In this document: positions 2,534 to 62,205 of the stretch, in pieces
Layout: every line of letters starts with the position of its first letter
Position numbering within the stretch: position 1 is the first letter of the stretch
Assembly (NCBI GenBank): GCA_007376805.1
Contig: VMGX01000002.1
Span: forward strand, 47,116-111,115
DNA length: 64,000 nucleotides
DNA from: Parcubacteria group bacterium Athens0714_16
Lineage (GTDB): Bacteria; Patescibacteriota; Minisyncoccia; Phycocordibacterales; 21-14-all-36-13
Direction of reading: 5' to 3'
Notes under the pieces: generated by a model
What the model saw: only the letters and a program-made list of their open reading frames with translations
What the model was told of the DNA's origin: nothing
Database searches by the model: none
Translations under genes and position numbers: made by a program

Positions 2534-4066
2534 TTATGAATACGTTTTCGGTCTATATTGCAACGCCTCAAATATATGAGGTGTTTTTATTTGTTCATCT
2601 CCATTCAAATCTGCAATCGTGCGCGCAAGTTTTATTACTCTATGATATGAGCGAGCAGACATCCCTAATTTTTCAGCAGAATTATTTAATGCCATGCGAG
2701 TTTGTAAATCTAAATCAACTGTGTTTGTAATATCTTTCGCGGACATATCAGAATTTATTTTTACACCTTTAAGTTTTTCTTTTTCAAATCTTTCTTTTTG
2801 AATTTTTCTAGCCTCTTCAACCCGCGAGCGAACCCTTTTTGATTCCCCGCCATTCCCACGCATTGCTAATTTTTCATAATCAATCTTTGAGACCTCAACC
2901 CACATATCAATTCTATCGATTATAGGTCCTGAAATTTTTTTTCTATATCTATCAAGTTCAAGCGGAGAGCAGGTACATTCTTTTTCTGTTCCAAAATTTC
3001 CACACTTGCACGGATTCATCGCAGCAACGAGAATAAAGTTTGCAGGAAACGTGGCAGATCCACGCGAACGAGAAATATTTATAATTCTATCTTCGAGAGG
3101 TTGTCTCATTGCCTCAACAACTCGCCTATCAAATTCTGGAAATTCGTCCATAAATAAAACCCCTTTGTGTGCAAGAGTAATTTCTCCTGGTTTTGGTATT
3201 GTTCCACCGCCAACCATAGAAACATATGACGAAGTGTGATGTGGAGAGCGAAACGGAGGATTTGTTATTAAATCTTCATTTAAAATTCCGGCAACAGAAT
3301 GAATACTTGTGACTTCTAAAATTTCATCAAAATCCAAACGAGGTAAAATACCACAAAAAGCTTTAGCCAACATTGTTTTTCCAGTTCCCGGTGGCCCATA
3401 CATGGCAATATTGTGTCCGCCTGACGCTGCGATTTCCAAACCTCTCTTTGCAGTTTCCTGACCTTTTATATCTGAAAAATCCAAAAGTGAATCCAGCTCT
3501 TTATAAAAAATTTCTGTTTGTTCTTGCGGGTTGATTTCTGTTTTTATTTCCTTGTTCAAGTGGTCAATAACTTCTTTTAAAGAATTCGCACCGAATATTT
3601 TTATTCCATCAATAAGTCCCGCTTCAACGGCGTTGTCTCTTGGAATATAAATTTCTTCAAATCCAAGTTCTTTTGCTTTTAAAACAAGTGGAAGCACACC
3701 ACCTATTTTTCTCAAATCACCATTTAAAGATAATTCACCAAGGAACATTTTCTTTTCAGTATCAAAATTAATTTGTTTTACCGCGAGCAAATACGCAAGA
3801 GCAATTCCTAAATCAAAAATAGGCCCCTCTTTTTTTAATTGAGCCGGCGCGAGCGCGATTACAACTTTTTGATTCTTCTTTTTTGGTGACGGGAAGCCAG
3901 AATTTTTTATTGCAGCGGAAACTCTGTCGCGTGATTCTTCAACTGCCTTGTCAGGAAGACCAACGACTGAAAAAGAATGAAGACCTTTTATTAAATCAAC
4001 CTCGATGTCAATTAAGTGTGCTTTAAGTAGAGATGTTTGTGCAGAATAAACTTTTGAGAAGGACAT
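2534..4066 (-). CDS. comM: YifB/ComM family Mg-chelatase-like AAA+ ATPase
   Basis: Walker A GPPGTGKT and ComM/YifB-like N- and C-terminal regions. Start placed at MSFSKVY; the ORF is open to 4087. Confidence 0.85.
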   Translation of the reverse strand: MSFSKVYSAQTSLLKAHLIDIEVDLIKGLHSFSVVGLPDKAVEESRDRVSAAIKNSGFPSPKKKNQKVVIALAPAQLKKEGPIFDLGIALAYLLAVKQINFDTEKKMFLGELSLNGDLRKIGGVLPLVLKAKELGFEEIYIPRDNAVEAGLIDGIKIFGANSLKEVIDHLNKEIKTEINPQEQTEIFYKELDSLLDFSDIKGQETAKRGLEIAASGGHNIAMYGPPGTGKTMLAKAFCGILPRLDFDEILEVTSIHSVAGILNEDLITNPPFRSPHHTSSYVSMVGGGTIPKPGEITLAHKGVLFMDEFPEFDRRVVEAMRQPLEDRIINISRSRGSATFPANFILVAAMNPCKCGNFGTEKECTCSPLELDRYRKKISGPIIDRIDMWVEVSKIDYEKLAMRGNGGESKRVRSRVEEARKIQKERFEKEKLKGVKINSDMSAKDITNTVDLDLQTRMALNNSAEKLGMSARSYHRVIKLARTIADLNGDEQIKTPHIFEALQYRPKTYS

Positions 4067-4318
4067 GATGTATATACAATAAATCAAGAAAACAAAAAAG
4101 CAAAGAAATAATGTTGAAAAAACCTAACAAAAAATAAATTATTTCAAAAATAGATTTAAAACTACAATGTTTTTAATTTGATATTAAAAAGTTTTTTTTC
4201 ATTCACAATTGTTTCATTGTTTCATTGTTCCATTGTTAAAAACTAAAAATTAAGAACCTAGAAACTAGCCACTAGAACCTAGGCAGTGGCCTTGTTGAGC
4301 CATATTATATTAAAATAC

Positions 4319-4347
4319 TTGACAAGAAAACTCAATTATGCTATCAT
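4319..4347 (+). promoter_or_regulatory. near-consensus sigma70 promoter driving a noncoding locus
   Basis: TTGACA (4319-4324), 17-nt spacer, TATCAT (4342-4347). No ORF of 60 aa or more lies downstream until 5195. Confidence 0.6.
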
Positions 4348-4353
4348 ATAGGA

Positions 4354-4668
4354 AGATAATTAAGAGGTTTGAAATGAGCTTTCTAGGAGAACAGTGGAGA
4401 GACCACAAAATTAATAATAACCAGTGTCTCTCCAGCGTTCTCCCAGAAAGGTTAATATAGAGAGTTTCAGATAACCGAAAATGGTTATCACCAGCTAATT
4501 GGGTTGGTGTGACGCTCTCTGGGAGTCGAATTGATTGTGATTAGTCCAAGAAAAGATTAATCACAGAAACACATCTCAAAAGGAAGTGTACGACAAATAT
4601 CTGCACAAGATATGAAAGAATAAATAATGACGAACATTCCATTCTTTCATGTCGGCACTTCCTTTTTT
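4354..4668 (+). ncRNA. structured RNA of unknown class (series of long hairpins ending in a U-run)
   Basis: Hairpins read directly. 4379-4392 pairs with 4437-4450, with an inner 9-bp helix. Small hairpins lie at about 4470-4560. Nested 10-bp helices: 4579-4588 with 4656-4665, and ATGAAAGAAT with ATTCTTTCAT. These are followed by TTTTTT. I saw no RNase P, tmRNA or SRP core motifs. A 28-codon ORF (4374-4460, AAGAGG RBS) coincides with the first hairpin. Confidence 0.4.
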
Positions 4669-4816
4669 GAAGAGTTCTTTAAATAATAATTCGTAACTTC
4701 ATTCTTAATTAATTTCTCCACGAGAGAATTTGGCACGCACGACTTGTGTTTCGTCCTTACTGATGTTTTTTACACCAGATCAAGACGCAGAACACTAACA
4801 GTATGCCAATTCTCTC

Positions 4817-4872
4817 ATTCTGTCTTGAGATGCGTATCTCAACTGATGAGTCCAAAAGGACGAAACAAAAAA
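4817..4872 (+). ncRNA. hammerhead ribozyme, type III topology
   Basis: GUC(4822-4824) | stem I hairpin UUGAGAU-GCGU-AUCUCAA (4825-4842) | CUGAUGA (4843-4849) | stem II GUCC-AAAA-GGAC (4850-4861) | GAA (4862-4864) | ACA... pairing with UGU (4821-4823). All invariant core positions are present. Confidence 0.8.
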
Positions 4873-4927
4873 GTTTGTCAAACACCCGATGTTTGACAAC
4901 AGAAAAAATAAAAGTTCTTTAAAAAAT

Positions 4928-4979
4928 TTAGTTAGTTCTCTAAAATTACAAACGATTATAATTTTAGAGAACTAACTAA
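4928..4979 (+). other. perfect 20-bp inverted repeat (hairpin) immediately upstream of a small ORF
   Basis: TTAGTTAGTTCTCTAAAATT (4928-4947) and AATTTTAGAGAACTAACTAA (4960-4979), with a 12-nt loop. Confidence 0.7.
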
Positions 4980-4993
4980 TAAAGAGAGTTAAA

Positions 4994-5104
4994 ATGGAAA
5001 ACACAACAAAAAATCAAAAATGCAAAATGCTTGGGAAGGTTTATTTCACAATGCTCATCGTAGCTGTTGTTGCGTGGGCGACAGTTGTTATTTATAGTTT
5101 GTGA
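4994..5104 (+). CDS. 36-aa hydrophobic peptide (MENTTKNQKCKMLGKVYFTMLIVAVVAWATVVIYSL)
   Basis: ATG preceded by a GAGAG Shine-Dalgarno-like sequence. Single predicted TM helix. Followed by hairpin CATCGC-TTAT-GCGGTG plus a T-run. Below the ORF-track size cutoff. Confidence 0.4.
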   Translation: MENTTKNQKCKMLGKVYFTMLIVAVVAWATVVIYSL

Positions 5105-5194
5105 ATATTTTTGTTTTATTTTTAAAAAAACATCGCTTATGCGGTGTTTTTCTTTTTAATTATGGATTTAAAAGCTCTAAACGAGCTTTTAAAT

Positions 5195-5557
5195 TTATTT
5201 TACGTGTTCCAAACAAGTTGTTGCTGATGGGTTTGCGTCTAATCGCGCTTCTGGAATTTCTTTTCCACACACATCACAAATTCCGTATGTTCCATTTTTC
5301 ATTTTTTCTAGCGCCTTTTTTGTTTCGTTATATTTAATTTCAAGCTCTTTTAGTATTGCTGCATTTCCTTCAAATTCTTCAATTTCATCAGCATAATCAG
5401 TTGAATCAGCGGACGGCAAAGCTTCCTCGTCTGGTTCTGCTTCCCAGTCCTTTAGGTTGTCTGGGTTCTTTCTCCCAACACTATTAAGCTCGTTTTCCAA
5501 GAGTTTTAGTTCACTTTCAAGTAAATTTTTATATTTTTCTAATTTATTTTTTTCCAT
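5195..5557 (-). CDS. DksA/TraR family C4-type zinc-finger protein
   Basis: Coiled-coil N-terminus. C-terminal CDVCGKEIPEARLDANPSATTCLEH four-Cys motif. Confidence 0.8.
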   Translation of the reverse strand: MEKNKLEKYKNLLESELKLLENELNSVGRKNPDNLKDWEAEPDEEALPSADSTDYADEIEEFEGNAAILKELEIKYNETKKALEKMKNGTYGICDVCGKEIPEARLDANPSATTCLEHVK

Positions 5558-5745
5558 GTTTTTATAATTATTAAAGTATATTATCTCAAAAATTGCCTAT
5601 GTGCAAACTTGCCCCGTTAAATAATTTGTCCATGACAAATTCCTGCACGAGCAGGATTTAACAGGGCCAAATTTTAAACAACAAAACAATGAAATAATGA
5701 AGCAAAAATATTATGGATTCAAATGCTCATTTAGAGCATTTGAAT

Positions 5746-11101: not shown

Positions 11102-12034
11102 ATGTCGGAAAATGAATTGTTAAAACTAAAAAGAGAATTTCTCGAATATTTAGAAATTGAAAAAGGAAGAAATATAAAGACAATAAACAACTACGAGAGA
11201 TATTTGTCTCGTTTTCTTGAGTTTGCGAATATACAATCACCAAAAGAAATAACAGACGATATTTTGAGAACATATCGCCTTTGGTTAAATCGACAATTTT
11301 CTGGGACAAGTGTTGGGGGAATAAAAGAAACATTAAAAAAGAAGACGCAAAACTATTATTTAATTGCACTTCGTGGATTTTTAAAATATTTAGCAAGAAG
11401 AGAAATTAGGTCATTGCCCCCAGAAAGAATTGAACTTGCAAAAGTAGCTGAAAGAACAATAGACGTAATTACATACGAAGAACTTGAACGACTCCTTTCT
11501 GCTCCGGACGGAAGTGATATAAAAAGTTTGAGAGACGGCGCTATTTTAGAATTATTATTTTCGACAGGACTTCGTGTTTCAGAACTTTGTTCTCTTCAGA
11601 GAGATATAGATTTAAGTAAAGGAGAACTTTCTGTTAGAGGAAAGGGTGATAAAGTGCGAGTTGTTTTTATTTCTGAAAAAGCAAAGATGACAATAAAAAC
11701 GTATTTAGACAAAAGAAAAGATATGGATGATTCACTTTTTGTTCAATTATCTCCGTCGGGCAAAGACGCAGATAGAGAATCAAATCGACTCACACCTCGT
11801 TCAATTGAAAGAATTATAAAAAAGTATGCAATTAAGGCGGGTATATCAAAAAAGGTTACTCCACACGTTATTCGTCATAGTTTTGCTACGGATTTGCTTG
11901 AAAATGGCGCTGATTTGCGTTCAGTTCAGATTTTACTCGGTCATTCAAATATTTCTACCACACAGATTTATACACACGTAACAGACAAACACCTTCGCGA
12001 GATTCATAAAAATTTCCATGACAAAAGAAGGTAG
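11102..12034 (+). CDS. tyrosine recombinase XerC/XerD family
   Basis: Catalytic region HVIRHSFATDLLENGADLRSVQILLGHSNISTTQIYTHV, with upstream R and K residues of the integrase fold. Confidence 0.9.
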   Translation: MSENELLKLKREFLEYLEIEKGRNIKTINNYERYLSRFLEFANIQSPKEITDDILRTYRLWLNRQFSGTSVGGIKETLKKKTQNYYLIALRGFLKYLARREIRSLPPERIELAKVAERTIDVITYEELERLLSAPDGSDIKSLRDGAILELLFSTGLRVSELCSLQRDIDLSKGELSVRGKGDKVRVVFISEKAKMTIKTYLDKRKDMDDSLFVQLSPSGKDADRESNRLTPRSIERIIKKYAIKAGISKKVTPHVIRHSFATDLLENGADLRSVQILLGHSNISTTQIYTHVTDKHLREIHKNFHDKRR

Positions 12035-56487: not shown

Positions 56488-57296
56488 CTAACCTTGTGTT
56501 AAGAAATATGAACGAATACAAAAAATCACTAAAAAAGCGGAGGTAATAATCTTGTTTTTGAAGGATTATCGCCCGCTTATTAAAGCGGTTTTTTTATTAA
56601 AGAAATTGGCGGAATGACTGGACGAATGAACATTGAAAAATGAATATTAGTTAAGTTTAAAAGCAGAATCCAAGTGTCTTTTTCGTGGCACTGGATTTTA
56701 AAGTATTTTTCATCTAGCGGAATAGAAATATTCCATAGAAAATAAGTTTTATTAAGTCCCGCGTGATTTAATAAAAAAATTGTGGTTTATGTAGTTCCTA
56801 ACAGGAAATACATAAGGGCGTATGGTGGATGCCTTGACTCTAAGAGGCGATGAAGGACGTGGCATGGCTGCGATAAACTTCGGGGAGGTGCCTAGCAACC
56901 TTTGATCCGAAGGTTTCCGAATGGGGTAACCCATTGTGACAAACTCACAATACTGAATTTATTCAGTGCATACCTGGGGAAGTAAAACATTTCAGTACCC
57001 AGAGGAAAATAGAACAATAGTTATTCCCTTAGTAGCGGCGAGCGAAAAGGGAAAAGCCCAAACCGAACTCTTTTATTAGGGCTCGGGGTTGTAGGACGTT
57101 AATATCATATTTATATGAAAGAAGTTACAAATGTGTTAGATAGTTGAACAAGCTGGAAAGCTTGGCCCCAGAGGGTGATAGCCCCTTAAACGAAATTTTA
57201 CACACTTCTTTGTTAATGTTCCTGAGTATCTCAAGACACGAATGGCTTGAGAGAATCTGCCGGAACTAACCGGTAAGGCTAAATACTCTTAGAGAT

Positions 57297-57339
<43 letters not shown>

Positions 57340-58679
57340 GGAGAGGGGAGTGAAATAGACCTGAAACCATATGTCTACAAGGAGTCGGAGCAGAACTCTA
57401 CTGAGTTCTTTAAATATGTTTTTTAAAATTTATAATTTATGGATTTTAAAATTAGAGAATTGAGTAGAGTTTCTGCGACGGCGTGCCTATTGAAGAATGA
57501 GCCAACGAGTTTACATGTACTGCTTGACTAAGTCCCGAAAGGACGGAGTCTAAGGGAAACCGAGTGTTAAAAGCGCGTTCCGCTTTATTGCGGGTGTAGT
57601 ATATGTAAGACCCGAAGCCAGGTGAGCTACCCATGATCAGGGTGAACTTTGTCGAAAGACAAAGGGAGGCCCGAACCGTTTAGCCGTGCAAAACTATCGG
57701 ATGAATTGTGGGTAGGAGTGAAAAGCTAATCGAACTTGGTAATAGCTGGTTCTCTCCGAAATAGCTTTAGGGCTAGCGTTTAGTTTATCTTTTGGGGGTA
57801 GAGCACTGGATGGTCTGGATAGGAGGCAACTTCACTAGACCAATCAAACTCCGAATACCAGAAGCCACTACTAAACAGTCAGACTACGGGGGCTAAGCTC
57901 CGTCGGTCAAAAGGGAAACAGCCCAGATCTCAAGTTAAGGTCCCTAAATTTACATTAAGTGCAAATAAGGAGGTGGAATTTCTCCGACAGCGAGGAGGTT
58001 GGCTTAGAAGCAGCCATCCTTTAAAGAAAGCGTAACAGCTCACTCGTTAAGAGATTTTGCGCCACAAATAATCGGGGCTAAATGTGATACCGAAACTGAG
58101 GATGTCATCACTTTATTGTGATGGCGTGGTAGGAGAGCATTCCGTTCTACTGTGAAGCCAAAGGGGTGACCCATGGTGGAGTGTACGGAAGAGATAATGT
58201 TGGCACGAGTAACCACAATTCCACTAAGAAAGTGGAACGCCGAAAGATCAAGGTTTCCTTGGCAATGTAAATCATCCAAGGGTTAGTCGGTCCTAAGGTT
58301 ATGACGAAAGTCGGAGCCGATGGACACACGGTTAATATTCCGTGACTTTCATTTATTTCGATGGGGTGACGAAGTTTAGTATGTTTGGCGCATTATTGGA
58401 TTTGCGTCTACTTTGTGAGGAAGGTGCTTAGGCAAATCCGGGCACCTGACTTTAATGTCAATTCCAAGCGAGGCGGAGAACCTGAGATTCGTCAAAGGGA
58501 ATCAAACAAAGCAAGCTTCCAAGAAAAACCTCTAAGGTTAAATAAATGAAAACCGTACCGAAAACCGACACAGGTGATCAGGTCGAGAAGACTAAGGCGA
58601 ATGAGTGAGTGTTCCCCAAGGAACTCGGCAAAAAAGCAGCCGTAACTTTGGAATAAGGCTTTCCAGCTCCAATTTTGGG

Positions 58680-58950
58680 AGTAAAATTAAATTATGAATT
58701 ATGTTTATCTTATTCAAAATGATTTTGATGGAGAAATATATATTGGACAAACTTCTGATATAAAAAGAAGGTTGGCTGAACATAATAATAAATGTCAAAA
58801 AGTTTACCACTAAAAAACGGTAAGTGGATAATTATTTATCTTGAAATATTCAGAAATAAAAAAGATGCACAAGAAAGAGAAAATAAATTAAAACAACATG
58901 GTGGTGGTAAAAAAGAATTACTTAAGCGACTAAGATATAGTTTGCTTGAG
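58680..58950 (+). other. 271-nt insertion in the terminal loop of a helix-63-equivalent hairpin
   Basis: Closed by the 17-bp helix CCAGCTCCAATTTTGGG (58663-58679) with CCCAAAATTGGAGCTGG (58951-58967). Lacks the AUAUAGUC group I signature. Confidence 0.6.
58694..58935 (+). pseudogene. frameshifted GIY-YIG nuclease gene inside the 23S insertion
   Basis: Frame 1 reads MNYVYLIQNDFDGEIYIGQTSDIKRRLAEHNNK (GIY-YIG N-half, stop at 58813). The C-half KWIIIYLEIFRNKKDAQERENKLKQ continues in another frame from about 58792, with no stop until 59028 in rRNA sequence. The shift lies near an A-run. Confidence 0.65.
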
Positions 58951-59124
58951 CCCAAAATTGGAGCTGGACGCAGCGAAAGTACCCCTGGCGACTGTTTACC
59001 AAAAACACAGCTCCCTGCGAACTCGTAAGAGGATGTATAGGGGGTGACGCCTGACCAATGCCAGAAGGTTAAACATGAGGGGTCCAAGAAGTTTTACTTT
59101 TTGGGCTGGATTATGTAAGCCCTG

Positions 59125-59159
<35 letters not shown>

Positions 59160-59611
59160 TCTCGGTTTAATTTTTAAATTGAATCGAGAAAGACTAGGAC
59201 TGTTATAATAAAAAATTGGTAACAAAAGATTGCTGCCTATTTCACGTAAAGTGAAATGTCTATAAAATTTGACCATATGCTGGGAAACCCGCGATGTATC
59301 CTTAAGTACTCGTTTAATTTTTTAAACAGTAACAAACTTTAAGGTGATGCGGAAAATCAGCAGGAAAGTTTGAATTCTTTTTAATTAAATCTAGAATTCA
59401 AAATCCTCAGAGACTAAAAGTCAGACTAAGTTGTCTACAAAAACAATTTAGAAAATATAGTCCGAACTTTGTGGCGACACAGAGAGTGAGACAGAAATGT
59501 TCTTACCTTGTATCTGCGTTCATCTGCGCCTGCCCCGTAGCTAGAGCATAGCTCTATGGTACTGGGGTATAATTTGCGTAGATCTGCGTTTGTTACAAAG
59601 TAACAAAGTTG
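59160..59611 (+). mobile_element. group I intron (ORF-less) at the E. coli 1917-equivalent position
   Basis: Interrupts CCTAAGGT|...G|AGCGTAATTCC. The 5' exon ends in U and the intron ends in G. Contains AGACTAAAAGTC and GAAAATATAGTCC core-like motifs. Confidence 0.75.
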
Positions 59612-60105
59612 AGCGTAATTCCTTGTGTGGTAAGTTCACACGTGCACGAATGGCGTAACGACTGGGGGACTGTCTCGGGGAACAGCTCGGTGAAAATACA
59701 GTATCGGTGAAGATGCCGATTACCTGCAACGGGACGAAAAGACCCCGGGAGCTTTACTGCAACTTCGTATTGAATATACGTTTCATCTGCGTAGCATAGA
59801 TGGGAGACTTTGAAGTTTGTTTTTCGGAACAGATGGAGTCAACAGTGAAATACCATTCTTATGTGATGTATATTCTAACCTCAACGGCAAAAACGGTGAG
59901 GGACATTGCGTGGTGGGCAGTTTTAGTGGGGCGCTATCCTCCTAAAGAGTAACGGAGGAGTTTATCAAGGTCAGCTAGGCGCGAATGGAAACCGTGCCGA
60001 TAGTGTAATGGCACAAGCTGGCTTAACTGCGAGACGGACATGTCGAGCAGATGCGAAAGCAGAACATAATGAACCGACGATTCGAATTAGACACGGTCGG
60101 AGATT

Positions 60106-60138
<33 letters not shown>

Positions 60139-60181
60139 GGTTCCGCCTAAGCGTTCAGAGCGACGGCGGAGTTCGGCACCT

Positions 60182-60503
60182 TAAAGTAAATTTACAAATT
60201 TAAATCGGGGTGCGACGTGAGAGATTGCGTAGCCTGGAATCAAAAACATATTTGTAGGAGAATATGTTCAGATTAAAAATATTGGCTTATAACGGTGGAC
60301 TCCATCATAAAAATTTTTATTATGGACAATACCGTGGGAAGTCTTCGTTTTCAAAAACGAATGACCCCGTAGAGACTGATGCGAAAGCAGAGAGTATTTC
60401 ATAAACGAAATGCTAATACGCCAACTCCTAACCACAATAAATTAATTGTGGAAGGAAGAAGATATAGTCCGATCCTTCTGGTAACAGAAGAAAAATGACA
60501 TTG
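60182..60503 (+). mobile_element. group I intron (ORF-less) at the E. coli ~2500-equivalent position
   Basis: Interrupts GGCACCT|...G|CGATGTCGG. Contains GAAGATATAGTCC. Shares blocks with the next intron. Confidence 0.75.
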
Positions 60504-60659
60504 CGATGTCGGCTCGACTTATCCTGGGACTGGAGAAGGCCCCAAGGGTTTGGCTGTTCGCCAATTAAAAAGTCACGTGAGCTGGGTTCAGACCGTCGTG
60601 AGACAGGTTGGTCTCCTATCTGTTGCAGGCGTCGATTTTTGAGGAGATTTGCTTCTAGT

Positions 60660-61874: not shown

Positions 61875-61983
61875 GGCGGTATAGTTTAATCTGCTCTGGG
61901 CAGACTGACCAGTGGTTTTTGGTTAGGGTTAAAACGTCGCCCTTTTAAGGCGAAGAGTATTGGTTCGAGTCCGATTATCGTCA
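61875..61983 (+). tRNA. tRNA-Lys (anticodon UUU) with a 36-nt D-loop insertion
   Basis: Acceptor GGCGGTA/TATCGTC, D-stem GTTT/AAAC, anticodon arm TCGCC-CTTTTAA-GGCGA, T-arm ATTGG-TTCGAGT-CCGAT. The insert at 61891-61926 lies between AAT and GGTTA of the D-loop. Confidence 0.6.
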
Positions 61984-61989
61984 CAAAAG

Positions 61990-62064
61990 GCGGGGGTAGT
62001 TCAGTTGGTTAGAACATTCGTTTCGCAAAACGAAAGGTCGGTGGTTCGAGTCCACCCCTCTGCT
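61990..62064 (+). tRNA. tRNA-Ala-like (G3:U70; CGC-containing 8-nt anticodon loop)
   Basis: Acceptor GCGGGGG/CCTCTGC with G3:U70, D-arm GTTC-AGTTGGTTA-GAAC, anticodon stem TTCGT/ACGAA enclosing TTCGCAAA (8 nt), variable AGGTC, T-arm GGTGG-TTCGAGT-CCACC. Confidence 0.6.
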
Positions 62065-62205
62065 CGAAGTTTTTTTTGAGTTCTTTTATATGGGCCGTTG
62101 AATTAACAGACCGAGGTCTTTAGTGACTGGCGTAACAGCGCGGGCTCAACGGAACGGGAGAGCTTGGTTGGGGTAATCGGTAAATCACCCACGGTCTATC
62201 ATTTT

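Follow-up and report, generated by a model that had tools for sequence, protein, structure and literature searches.

Hammerhead ribozymes of prophages flank single genes of non-constant identity, and a role in the processing of long transcripts has been proposed for them (Perreault et al. 2011, PMC3088659). The locus described here, in which a hammerhead module follows a structured leader RNA, belongs to Parcubacteria group bacterium Athens0714_16 and lies within the 1.1 kb that separate comM/yifB (2534-4087) from a dksA/traR-type gene (5195-5557), both genes being on the minus strand. Coordinates are positions in the 64-kb stretch of DNA that was analysed (the window), and the interval in question, 4319-4915, had been flagged in a preliminary description as one noncoding locus of about 600 nt and of unknown class. 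Comparison with relatives does not uphold this unity, as only 4312-4532 is conserved and the hammerhead module is separable and varies in position. Judged from the sequence, the interval is a composite rather than a single RNA class, comprising a promoter, a new structured leader RNA, a spacer restricted to the window, and a hammerhead module. It is probably the first two-thirds, counted from the 5' end, of a small accessory transcription unit (approximately 4100-5110) that one narrow lineage carries between dksA and comM as an insertion on the opposite strand. The arrangement is a variant of the prophage hammerhead-gene array, and its leader is a new, narrowly distributed RNA motif. The searchable literature contains no discussion of hammerhead ribozymes in Patescibacteria.

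The likeness to phage and prophage hammerheads (RF00008) extends from the ribozyme to its surroundings. The CUGAUGA and GAAA cores, the GUC triplet, and the short open stem III are shared, as is, in the window copy, a stem I of 7 bp with a short G/U-rich loop; a stable hairpin is located just upstream and a start codon shortly downstream. An identical core together with an identical stem II (4 bp, AAAA loop) was found in 34 phage contigs (35 copies). In 32 of these 35 copies the end of a stable hairpin is separated from the cleavage region downstream by 0-4 nt, and in 31 of the 32 a start codon lies 9-46 nt downstream, one contig ending too soon to tell. As in prophage arrays, the ribozyme stands among small co-oriented genes of changing identity (L119, L128, L129, L131, L138, L141, and L272; L numbers denote the loci compared). 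Unlike in prophage arrays, the upstream partner of the hammerhead in the window and in L140 is the leader RNA and not a gene, the locus is situated on a Patescibacteria chromosome with no phage genes nearby, and there is one ribozyme per array instead of flanking pairs. The upstream helix also differs from that of phage hammerheads in being of conserved sequence (GAGAGAAUUUGG/CCAAUUCUCUC) and in taking varied inserts, and the window copy departs from them by its mismatched stem III and its inverted decayed twin; all copies score below the gathering threshold.

Processed polycistronic operons with long 5' leaders offer another parallel, since a promoter-proximal structured RNA is followed by cistrons, the cistron separators consist of a hairpin, an AU-rich single strand, and a further hairpin, and stem-loops in the 5' untranslated region (5'UTR) stand just upstream of ribosome-binding sites. 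Here, however, the leader lies outside described families, separation is attributed at least partly to a self-cleaving ribozyme and not to a protein RNase, and the cistrons are interchangeable accessory genes. Integron arrays likewise combine a fixed promoter-bearing platform with variable, short, promoterless cassettes, a repeated site, and imperfect inverted repeats, and their content differs between close relatives. In contrast to integrons, the present arrays contain no integrase and are very short (1-5 cassettes), and their inverted repeats are located upstream of the open reading frames (ORFs) and contain G.U pairs indicative of a function as RNA on the coding strand. Finally, the locus resembles ornate bacterial noncoding RNAs (ncRNAs) and housekeeping RNAs in being promoter-driven, highly structured, non-coding, and intergenic. 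It differs from ROOL, GOLLD, HEARO/omega RNA, OLE, raiA, 6S, SRP, tmRNA, and RNase P in giving no covariance-model match at E ≤ 10, and also in its much shorter conserved part (about 180 nt), its restriction to one narrow lineage, and the lack of an associated TnpB, IscB, or reverse-transcriptase gene.

The relatives comprise the closest genome, L001, taken from a species collection (ComM 90% identical to that of the window), and loci from a metagenome scan with an 18-nt pattern of the shared block. The scan returned 27 loci, 14 of which are true homologues; as these include two duplicate-entry pairs, 12 distinct versions remain, while the other loci are chance matches in unrelated G+C-rich DNA. 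The approximately 12 homologues of promoter and leader derive from groundwater and sediment metagenomes. Hainich groundwater samples are the source of L119, L128, L138, and L272. Between L001 and the window the common blocks are only 4312-4532 and 4910-4990, and both 4533-4669 and 4688-4909 are wholly missing from L001; relatives in general conserve only 4312-4532. All but one of the 12 versions share the promoter boxes, the RNA of about 180 nt, the closing hairpin without a U-run, and the motif AAGTTCTTTAAAAAAT. Conservation or covariation, regarded in the preliminary description as decisive for the locus, was thus found for the promoter and leader and for hammerhead stems I and II, and it is lacking in 4533-4669 and in the interior of 4736-4803, which are unique to this genome.

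The near-consensus promoter reported earlier (TTGACA-17-TATCAT) held up on comparison. It is the top sigma-70-like site within 3900-5700, and neither its -35 box nor its -10 box with the TG extension varies across 10 homologues, unlike the spacer between them; transcription would start near 4354. A leader version that lacks the sigma-70 promoter occurs in L118, L274, and L275, where G-rich sequence (GGGGGGCTATTCGG...CCAGGGGGG) takes its place beside a divergent gene.

The leader appears to be a real, lineage-restricted structured RNA outside the described families. In the alignment of ten sequences (A1), the 27-nt 3' arm of helix H1 (Table 1) is identical in all, and the 17-nt tail GGGAGUCGAAUU is invariant in nine, L118 having GGGAGCCGAAUU with one substitution. 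Standard pairs account for 95.8% of the cells of the consensus fold, compared with 42-54% when 3' partners are shifted. Only four pairs are changed on both sides, mostly in P_c, and H1 is nearly invariant. The leader is assigned to the plus strand because of U.G wobbles, which occur at two positions of H1 (in 7/10 and 9/10 sequences) and in P_c (5/10). Helix P_a requires a one-base register shift in four sequences, and a small alternative 3' hairpin (GAC.CUC/GGG.GUC) is possible. Scored with a covariance model built from A1 (R1), the leader of the window reaches 195 bits and those of L264, L274, and L275 reach 189-206 bits. R1 detected no leader around comM or dksA when applied to 80 further loci of related genera; the sources scanned for diverged leaders near these genes in other genera numbered 69 + 15. 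The leader is absent wherever the island is absent and was never met without array context; no paralogues turned up in the window. At the position of the closing hairpin the relatives contain four different stems (cacttgggtg.., cacttggaag.., gtgattgacc.., and cactgagagg..).

With Rfam 15 at gathering scores, no known family covers the interval in a search of the whole window. At E ≤ 10 over 4050-5200, the sub-threshold hammerhead and miRNA-type hairpin matches to H1 were obtained, with no other RNA family, and ARAGORN found no tmRNA; the scans thus agree with the earlier failure to find RNase P, tmRNA, SRP, 6S, or riboswitch motifs by eye. The possibility of a known family, raised at that time, turned out differently for the two parts: the leader has no match, and the hammerhead belongs to RF00008. 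The non-coding character of the plus strand was likewise sustained, the longest ORFs within 4319-4915 being 40, 50, and 39 aa, all below the 60 aa stated originally. An ORF at 4338/4374-4460 (28/40 aa), which is preceded in the window by a plausible ribosome-binding site, was rejected: it is frameshifted in L001 and meets a stop after four codons in L138.

The hammerhead noticed in the second part of the interval is substantiated by seven related copies. Their core is invariant (the triplet of one copy is GUU), and pairing is complete (100%) in stems I and II, three pairs in each being changed on both sides and register-shifted controls reaching 35-54%. Stem I varies between UUGAGAU/AUCUCAA and GUGAAGU/ACUUCAC, and stem II between GUCC/GGAC, GUUG/CAAC, and GCUC/GAGC, in which an insert of 20 nt may be present or absent. 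In the predicted fold of the window, stems I and II have pairing probabilities of 0.68-1.0 and stem III is outcompeted. The relatives' stem III contains 6 bp (UUCUGU/ACAGAA), with a C-G pair where the window has C4820.A4868; the window does have the pairs A4865-U4823 and C4866-G4822. Past the hairpin 4875-4899 there is a displaced sequence (ACAGAA, 4899-4904) perfectly complementary to the 5' strand of stem III. As stem III is weakened and has a competitor, cleavage efficiency in the window is uncertain, and this copy is best described as a probably genuine member of the class with an intact core. Relatives with intact stem III score 31-42 bits against RF00008, hence also below threshold, and the shortfall is therefore a property of the subclass and not of this copy.

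Eight arrays, counting that of the window, contain the module at one junction, where the helix (GAGAGAAUUUGG.../...CCAAUUCUCUC) is followed by AUUCUGUC and then by the hammerhead. It is also present in L272 and in L263, a partial contig that shares an identical module with L141. The distance between leader and module in relatives ranges from 218 to 946 nt, with 0-2 small ORFs in between, and some relatives have no module; the helix of the module encloses four different loop inserts. The loop of the window (4736-4803) is a decayed inverted copy of the hammerhead: when reverse-complemented, it can be aligned to the ribozyme over the full length with a score of 40, compared with 19.3 ± 3.9 for shuffled sequences, none of 500 scoring as high. 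The 15-nt complementarity between 4744-4758 and 4856-4870 is explained by this copy. An 'anti-hammerhead' switch formed by the two segments was considered and rejected, since the forced pairing, at -46.9 kcal/mol, lies 11.5 above the best fold.

In the last cassette of L129 (approximately 1080-1200) and of L141/L263 (approximately 1020-1100 past the leader pattern), the helix is fused to a terminator (GUGCGG...CCGCAC and a U-run) and no ribozyme is present. The first 8 nt of stem I (GUGAAGUG) are retained, and the fusion looks like recombination at the cleavage site. The words GAGAAC/GUUCUC are shared by the main helices of the leader and of the 5'UTR hairpin (4387-4392, 4437-4442, 4935-4940, and 4967-4972), and the hammerhead helix uses the related GAGAGAA/UUCUCUC (4722-4728 and 4810-4816). 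The locus contains two copies of GAGAAC and two of GTTCTC, with about 0.13 of each expected; a common origin or a common binding protein is possible.

Every cassette opens with the boundary motif, and many also with the 5'UTR hairpin. Across the related arrays that were examined, 26 cassettes start with the motif, and its core AGTTCTTTAAA occurs three times in the window, compared with 0.25 expected. The third occurrence is part of an exact 14-nt copy (GAGTTCTTTAAATA, 57403-57416) inside a 23S rRNA insertion and may be a coincidence. Between the motif copies at 4670-4687 and 4910-4927 there are only the helix and the ribozyme, and no ORF. The base of the 5'UTR hairpin (UUAGUUAGUUCU/AGAACUAACUAA) is conserved in relatives; its top and loop vary with compensating changes, including plus-strand G.U pairs, and the same stems precede different ORFs (L001, L123, L126, L128, L129, L131, L138, L140, L141, and L272). 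The arrays of relatives contain 1-5 small same-strand ORFs of 32-166 aa, many of them hydrophobic by inspection, and none of the cassette proteins matched a Pfam family. The product of the 36-aa ORF in the window, presumed to be translated, is likely membrane-spanning; it has no Pfam match, and blastn, which compares at the nucleotide level only, found no counterpart in related arrays. The order of cassettes differs between genomes: one is first in L119 and second in L141, and another is common to L119 and L131. In L272 (array orientation, approximately 1290-1460), the 3' end of the first cassette, the downstream hairpins, and the boundary motif are duplicated later in the array, which shows intra-array recombination.

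The whole unit is a variably present insertion, because dksA and comM are adjacent in distant relatives and in one close one. They lie on one strand, 12-97 nt apart, in L265, L267/L268, and L269/L270 (DksA 63-73% identical), and are also adjacent in the close relative L276 (DksA 80% identical), with a gap of about 150 nt and the shared terminator retained. Since this terminator is also present at the empty site, it is ancestral. Flanking synteny is conserved (PNPase, an unnamed 319-aa gene, and dksA on one side; comM, a LysM-M23 peptidase, and ksgA on the other).

These observations suggest a sequence of events in which the conserved sigma-70 promoter would drive transcription of the structured leader of about 180 nt. 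In relatives, transcription would then run on into 1-5 interchangeable small genes, each opening with AAGUUCUUUAAAAAAU and usually with a 5'UTR hairpin, and one junction per array would usually consist of a stable helix and a type III hammerhead. Cleavage just 3' of the helix would leave an upstream RNA ending in a protective stem (4722-4816) with a 2',3'-cyclic phosphate and a downstream mini-mRNA with a 5'-OH and a compact fold, so that the fates of the two halves would be uncoupled. Protective stems and 5'-OH ends alter RNA decay by bacterial RNases. The order in the window would be leader, branched terminator-like hairpin, helix and hammerhead, 5'UTR hairpin, and 36-aa membrane ORF, the first cassette thus being ORF-less.

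Several observations weigh against this interpretation. The additional hairpin of the window, with its U6, may stop most transcripts before the hammerhead. It corresponds to the nested helices and U-run noted originally at the end of the first module: an outer stem of 11 bp (4578-4588/4656-4666; 17 pairs when the adjoining helix is counted) has UUUUUU (4663-4668) immediately after it. Its 'loop' of 67 nt is branched, a consensus terminator scan made no call there, and no counterpart of 4578-4668 exists in relatives, whose closing hairpin without a U-run favours read-through. Covariation in the leader is thin, with an effective sequence number of 1.14, because all sequences are close relatives. 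The hammerhead scores 41.3 bits, below the RF00008 gathering score of 48.5, as does every copy. Its stem III has a C.A mismatch in the window, and the energy model prefers 4818-4823/4899-4904 (-58.4 kcal/mol) over the catalytic fold (-53.3). Stem III is also degenerate in L140, the only other case where the leader leads straight into the hammerhead, and the ORF-less modules of both may be decaying. Most arrays contain one hammerhead and L001, L118, L123, and L126 none, so ribozyme 'punctuation' is not general. A stand-alone trans-acting small RNA, ending at the closing hairpin or at U6 (4668), with hammerhead and ORF as unrelated or decaying passengers at an insertion hotspot, would accommodate the weakened hammerheads of the window and L140 as well as the terminator-like hairpin and U6. 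The leader's own strong, conserved promoter would fit such an RNA, and its invariant stretches (the H1 3' arm and the tail) could serve as seed or protein-binding sites. This alternative nevertheless seems unlikely, though it deserves serious attention: the hairpin of the relatives lacks a U-run, no other cassette promoter is evident, and the leader never occurs outside the array context. Its complementarity to downstream conserved elements is no better than chance, with duplex energies matched by 39/200 and 51/200 shuffled leaders, and antisense regulation of these elements was rejected on this basis.

The position of the leader, always directly between promoter and array and with a hairpin after it, is also what would be expected of a cis-regulatory element (of the riboswitch, attenuator, or protein-binding type) gating read-through into the array on a signal. 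CUCCCAG (4441-4447) is a possible partner of either of two CU(G/A)GGAG segments (4383-4390 and 4517-4524), which allows mutually exclusive folds, but this pairing falls within invariant sequence and is thus without covariation support. Such gating is distinctly improbable, as the downstream genes vary by genome, which is unusual for a ligand-sensing element, the hairpin loops vary, no junction resembles a known aptamer, and no Rfam riboswitch or leader matches. The boundary motif and long hairpins could alternatively be recombination sites comparable to integron attC/attI, with incidental RNA structure. The same 16-nt motif opens every cassette, two copies flank the hammerhead module of the window where L001 has one, the same cassettes occupy differing positions and combinations, and close relatives either have or lack the island. 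Even so, a DNA-level system has only a slender chance of being correct: no recombinase is encoded in or beside the island, the nearest tyrosine recombinase being 6 kb away in a conserved housekeeping neighbourhood; the plus-strand G.U pairs of the 5'UTR hairpin and leader indicate selection on RNA; and homologous recombination between repeated modules explains the shuffling equally well. Still more speculative, and very improbable, is the idea that the leader, the 16-nt motif, and the helix-hammerhead modules form an undescribed recombinase-less system capturing, shuffling, and expressing Patescibacteria cassettes, in which RNA intermediates would arise by ribozyme cleavage and ligation and the leader would act as a platform or guide. 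The original reading, one structured ncRNA of about 560 nt and of a new class that includes the hammerhead, could draw on the single upstream promoter and on the fold, and the hairpin density of the interval is real. The RNA 4354-4915 (562 nt) folds at -185.7 kcal/mol, compared with -117.3 ± 6.4 for dinucleotide-preserving shuffles (z = -10.8; 0/100 as good), and inverted repeats are numerous, with arms of 25, 21, 15, and 13 nt among them. However, only the first 180 nt or so are conserved, 4533-4669 and 4736-4803 have no counterpart, the closest relative lacks both 4533-4669 and 4688-4909, and the long-range pairs of the full fold join the 5' end of the leader to sequence missing from relatives. 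Because of the inverted hammerhead copy and the unique segments, hairpin density partly reflects lineage-specific rearrangement and not conserved structure, and the relatives largely refute this reading, which is now scarcely credible. Of the expectation that ribozymes sit beside novel RNAs, what stands, weakly, is the presence of a novel leader and a hammerhead in one small accessory transcription unit, and nothing beyond that. The minus strand of 4354-4915 folds equally well (z = -10.3); an RNA from that strand was rejected, as the promoter, wobble pairs, hammerhead, and ORFs are all on the plus strand.

The accessory transcription unit would place a phage-style hammerhead in a chromosomal presence/absence mini-island in which tiny genes, several with hydrophobic products, are exchanged among close relatives. 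If correct, it provides a natural case for the effect of intercistronic ribozymes on the fate of bacterial mRNA, a question open since 2011, a new structured motif of about 180 nt for RNA family collections, and, for episymbiotic bacteria, in which the genes for surface and interaction are little understood, a marker of a variable small-protein locus. Its reach is limited by the confinement of the element to one narrow lineage.

Table 1. Features of the dksA-comM insertion (positions in the window; arms of helices separated by a slash)
Feature	Position	Strand	Basis or remarks
Sigma-70 promoter, TTGACA-17-(TG)cTATCAT	4319-4347	+	11/12 consensus positions
Conserved structured leader RNA (putative), about 180 nt	4357-4534	+	Alignment A1, consensus fold, pair counts
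Leader helix H1, 22-bp hairpin	4380-4402/4427-4449	+	Consensus fold
Leader helix P_a, closing helix, probable	4459-4464/4515-4520	+	Consensus fold
Leader hairpin P_b	4470-4477/4482-4489	+	Consensus fold
Leader hairpin P_c	4490-4496/4502-4508	+	Consensus fold
Leader closing hairpin	4536-4565	+	Pairing kept, sequence differs among relatives; no U-run after it
Branched terminator-like hairpin, non-canonical, ending in U6	4578-4668	+	Inverted repeats I6 and I22; fold
Boundary motif copy 1, AAGAGTTCTTTAAATAAT	4670-4687	+	Direct repeat D9
ORF-less hammerhead module (helix and hammerhead)	4688-4909	+	Between boundary motif copies
Helix GAGAGAAUUUGGCA/UGCCAAUUCUCUC, directly 5' of hammerhead	4722-4735/4804-4816	+	Kept in 10 modules of relatives
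Type III hammerhead ribozyme	4817-4871	+	RF00008, 41.3 bits, E = 2.7e-7 (local search)
Hammerhead stem III	4818-4823/4865-4870	+	C4820.A4868 mismatch, 5/6 pairs
Hammerhead cleavage triplet GUC	4822-4824		Predicted cut between C4824 and U4825
Hammerhead stem I	4825-4831/4836-4842	+	7 bp
Hammerhead core, CUGAUGA and GAAA	4843-4849 and 4862-4865	+	Intact
Hammerhead stem II	4850-4853/4858-4861	+	4 bp
10-bp hairpin UUUGUCAAACA/UGUUUGACAA after hammerhead	4875-4899	+	Likewise in L128, L140, and L141
Boundary motif copy 2, AAAAGTTCTTTAAAAAAT, start of ORF cassette	4910-4927	+	Single copy at the equivalent place in L001
24-bp 5'UTR hairpin, UUAGUUAGUUCUCUAA.../...UUAGAGAACUAACUAA	4928-4979	+	Inverted repeat I1
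36-aa ORF MENTTKNQKCKMLGKVYFTMLIVAVVAWATVVIYSL, only cassette gene of the window	4994-5104	+	Hydrophobic
Bidirectional terminator, shared with dksA	5126-5151		Kept in all relatives, including the insertion-less L276

Among the neighbours of the locus are an NYN-domain gene and the genes encoding exonuclease III and CCA-adding enzyme. The island is not bordered by any phage gene or recombinase, and no recombinase ORF was found between comM and dksA in any locus. A phage origin was rejected at the sequence level, as blastn gave no match in 50,697 phage genomes; in viral contigs, the leader pattern had no match and the helix and 5'UTR-hairpin motifs gave chance matches only. A Xer-like tyrosine recombinase gene (Phage_integrase with an N-terminal SAM-like domain) is encoded at 11102-12034, 6 kb off, in a housekeeping neighbourhood. 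Between leader and comM, L001 (3257-3753) and L264 (3090-3583) carry a toxin-antitoxin pair in which a ParE-family toxin has a small partner upstream, consistent with an insertion hotspot. The gap between comM and the promoter contains an 8-nt tandem repeat (ATTGTTTC/ATTGTTCC, three copies, 4208-4237) and an 18-nt direct repeat (AGAACCTAGAAACTAGCC / AGAACCTAGGCAGTGGCC, 4253-4291), neither of which is conserved in relatives.

Elsewhere in the window, the 23S rRNA gene (56802-60656) measures 3855 nt, compared with 2925 nt for the model, and contains a group I intron (59214-59484, 62.2 bits) and several large insertions (e.g., near 57396-57470). At 61990-62065 ARAGORN predicts a tRNA with an unusual anticodon of four bases, 'cgca', and a partial tRNA in Rfam (61920-61975, model positions 8-63) is located just upstream of it.

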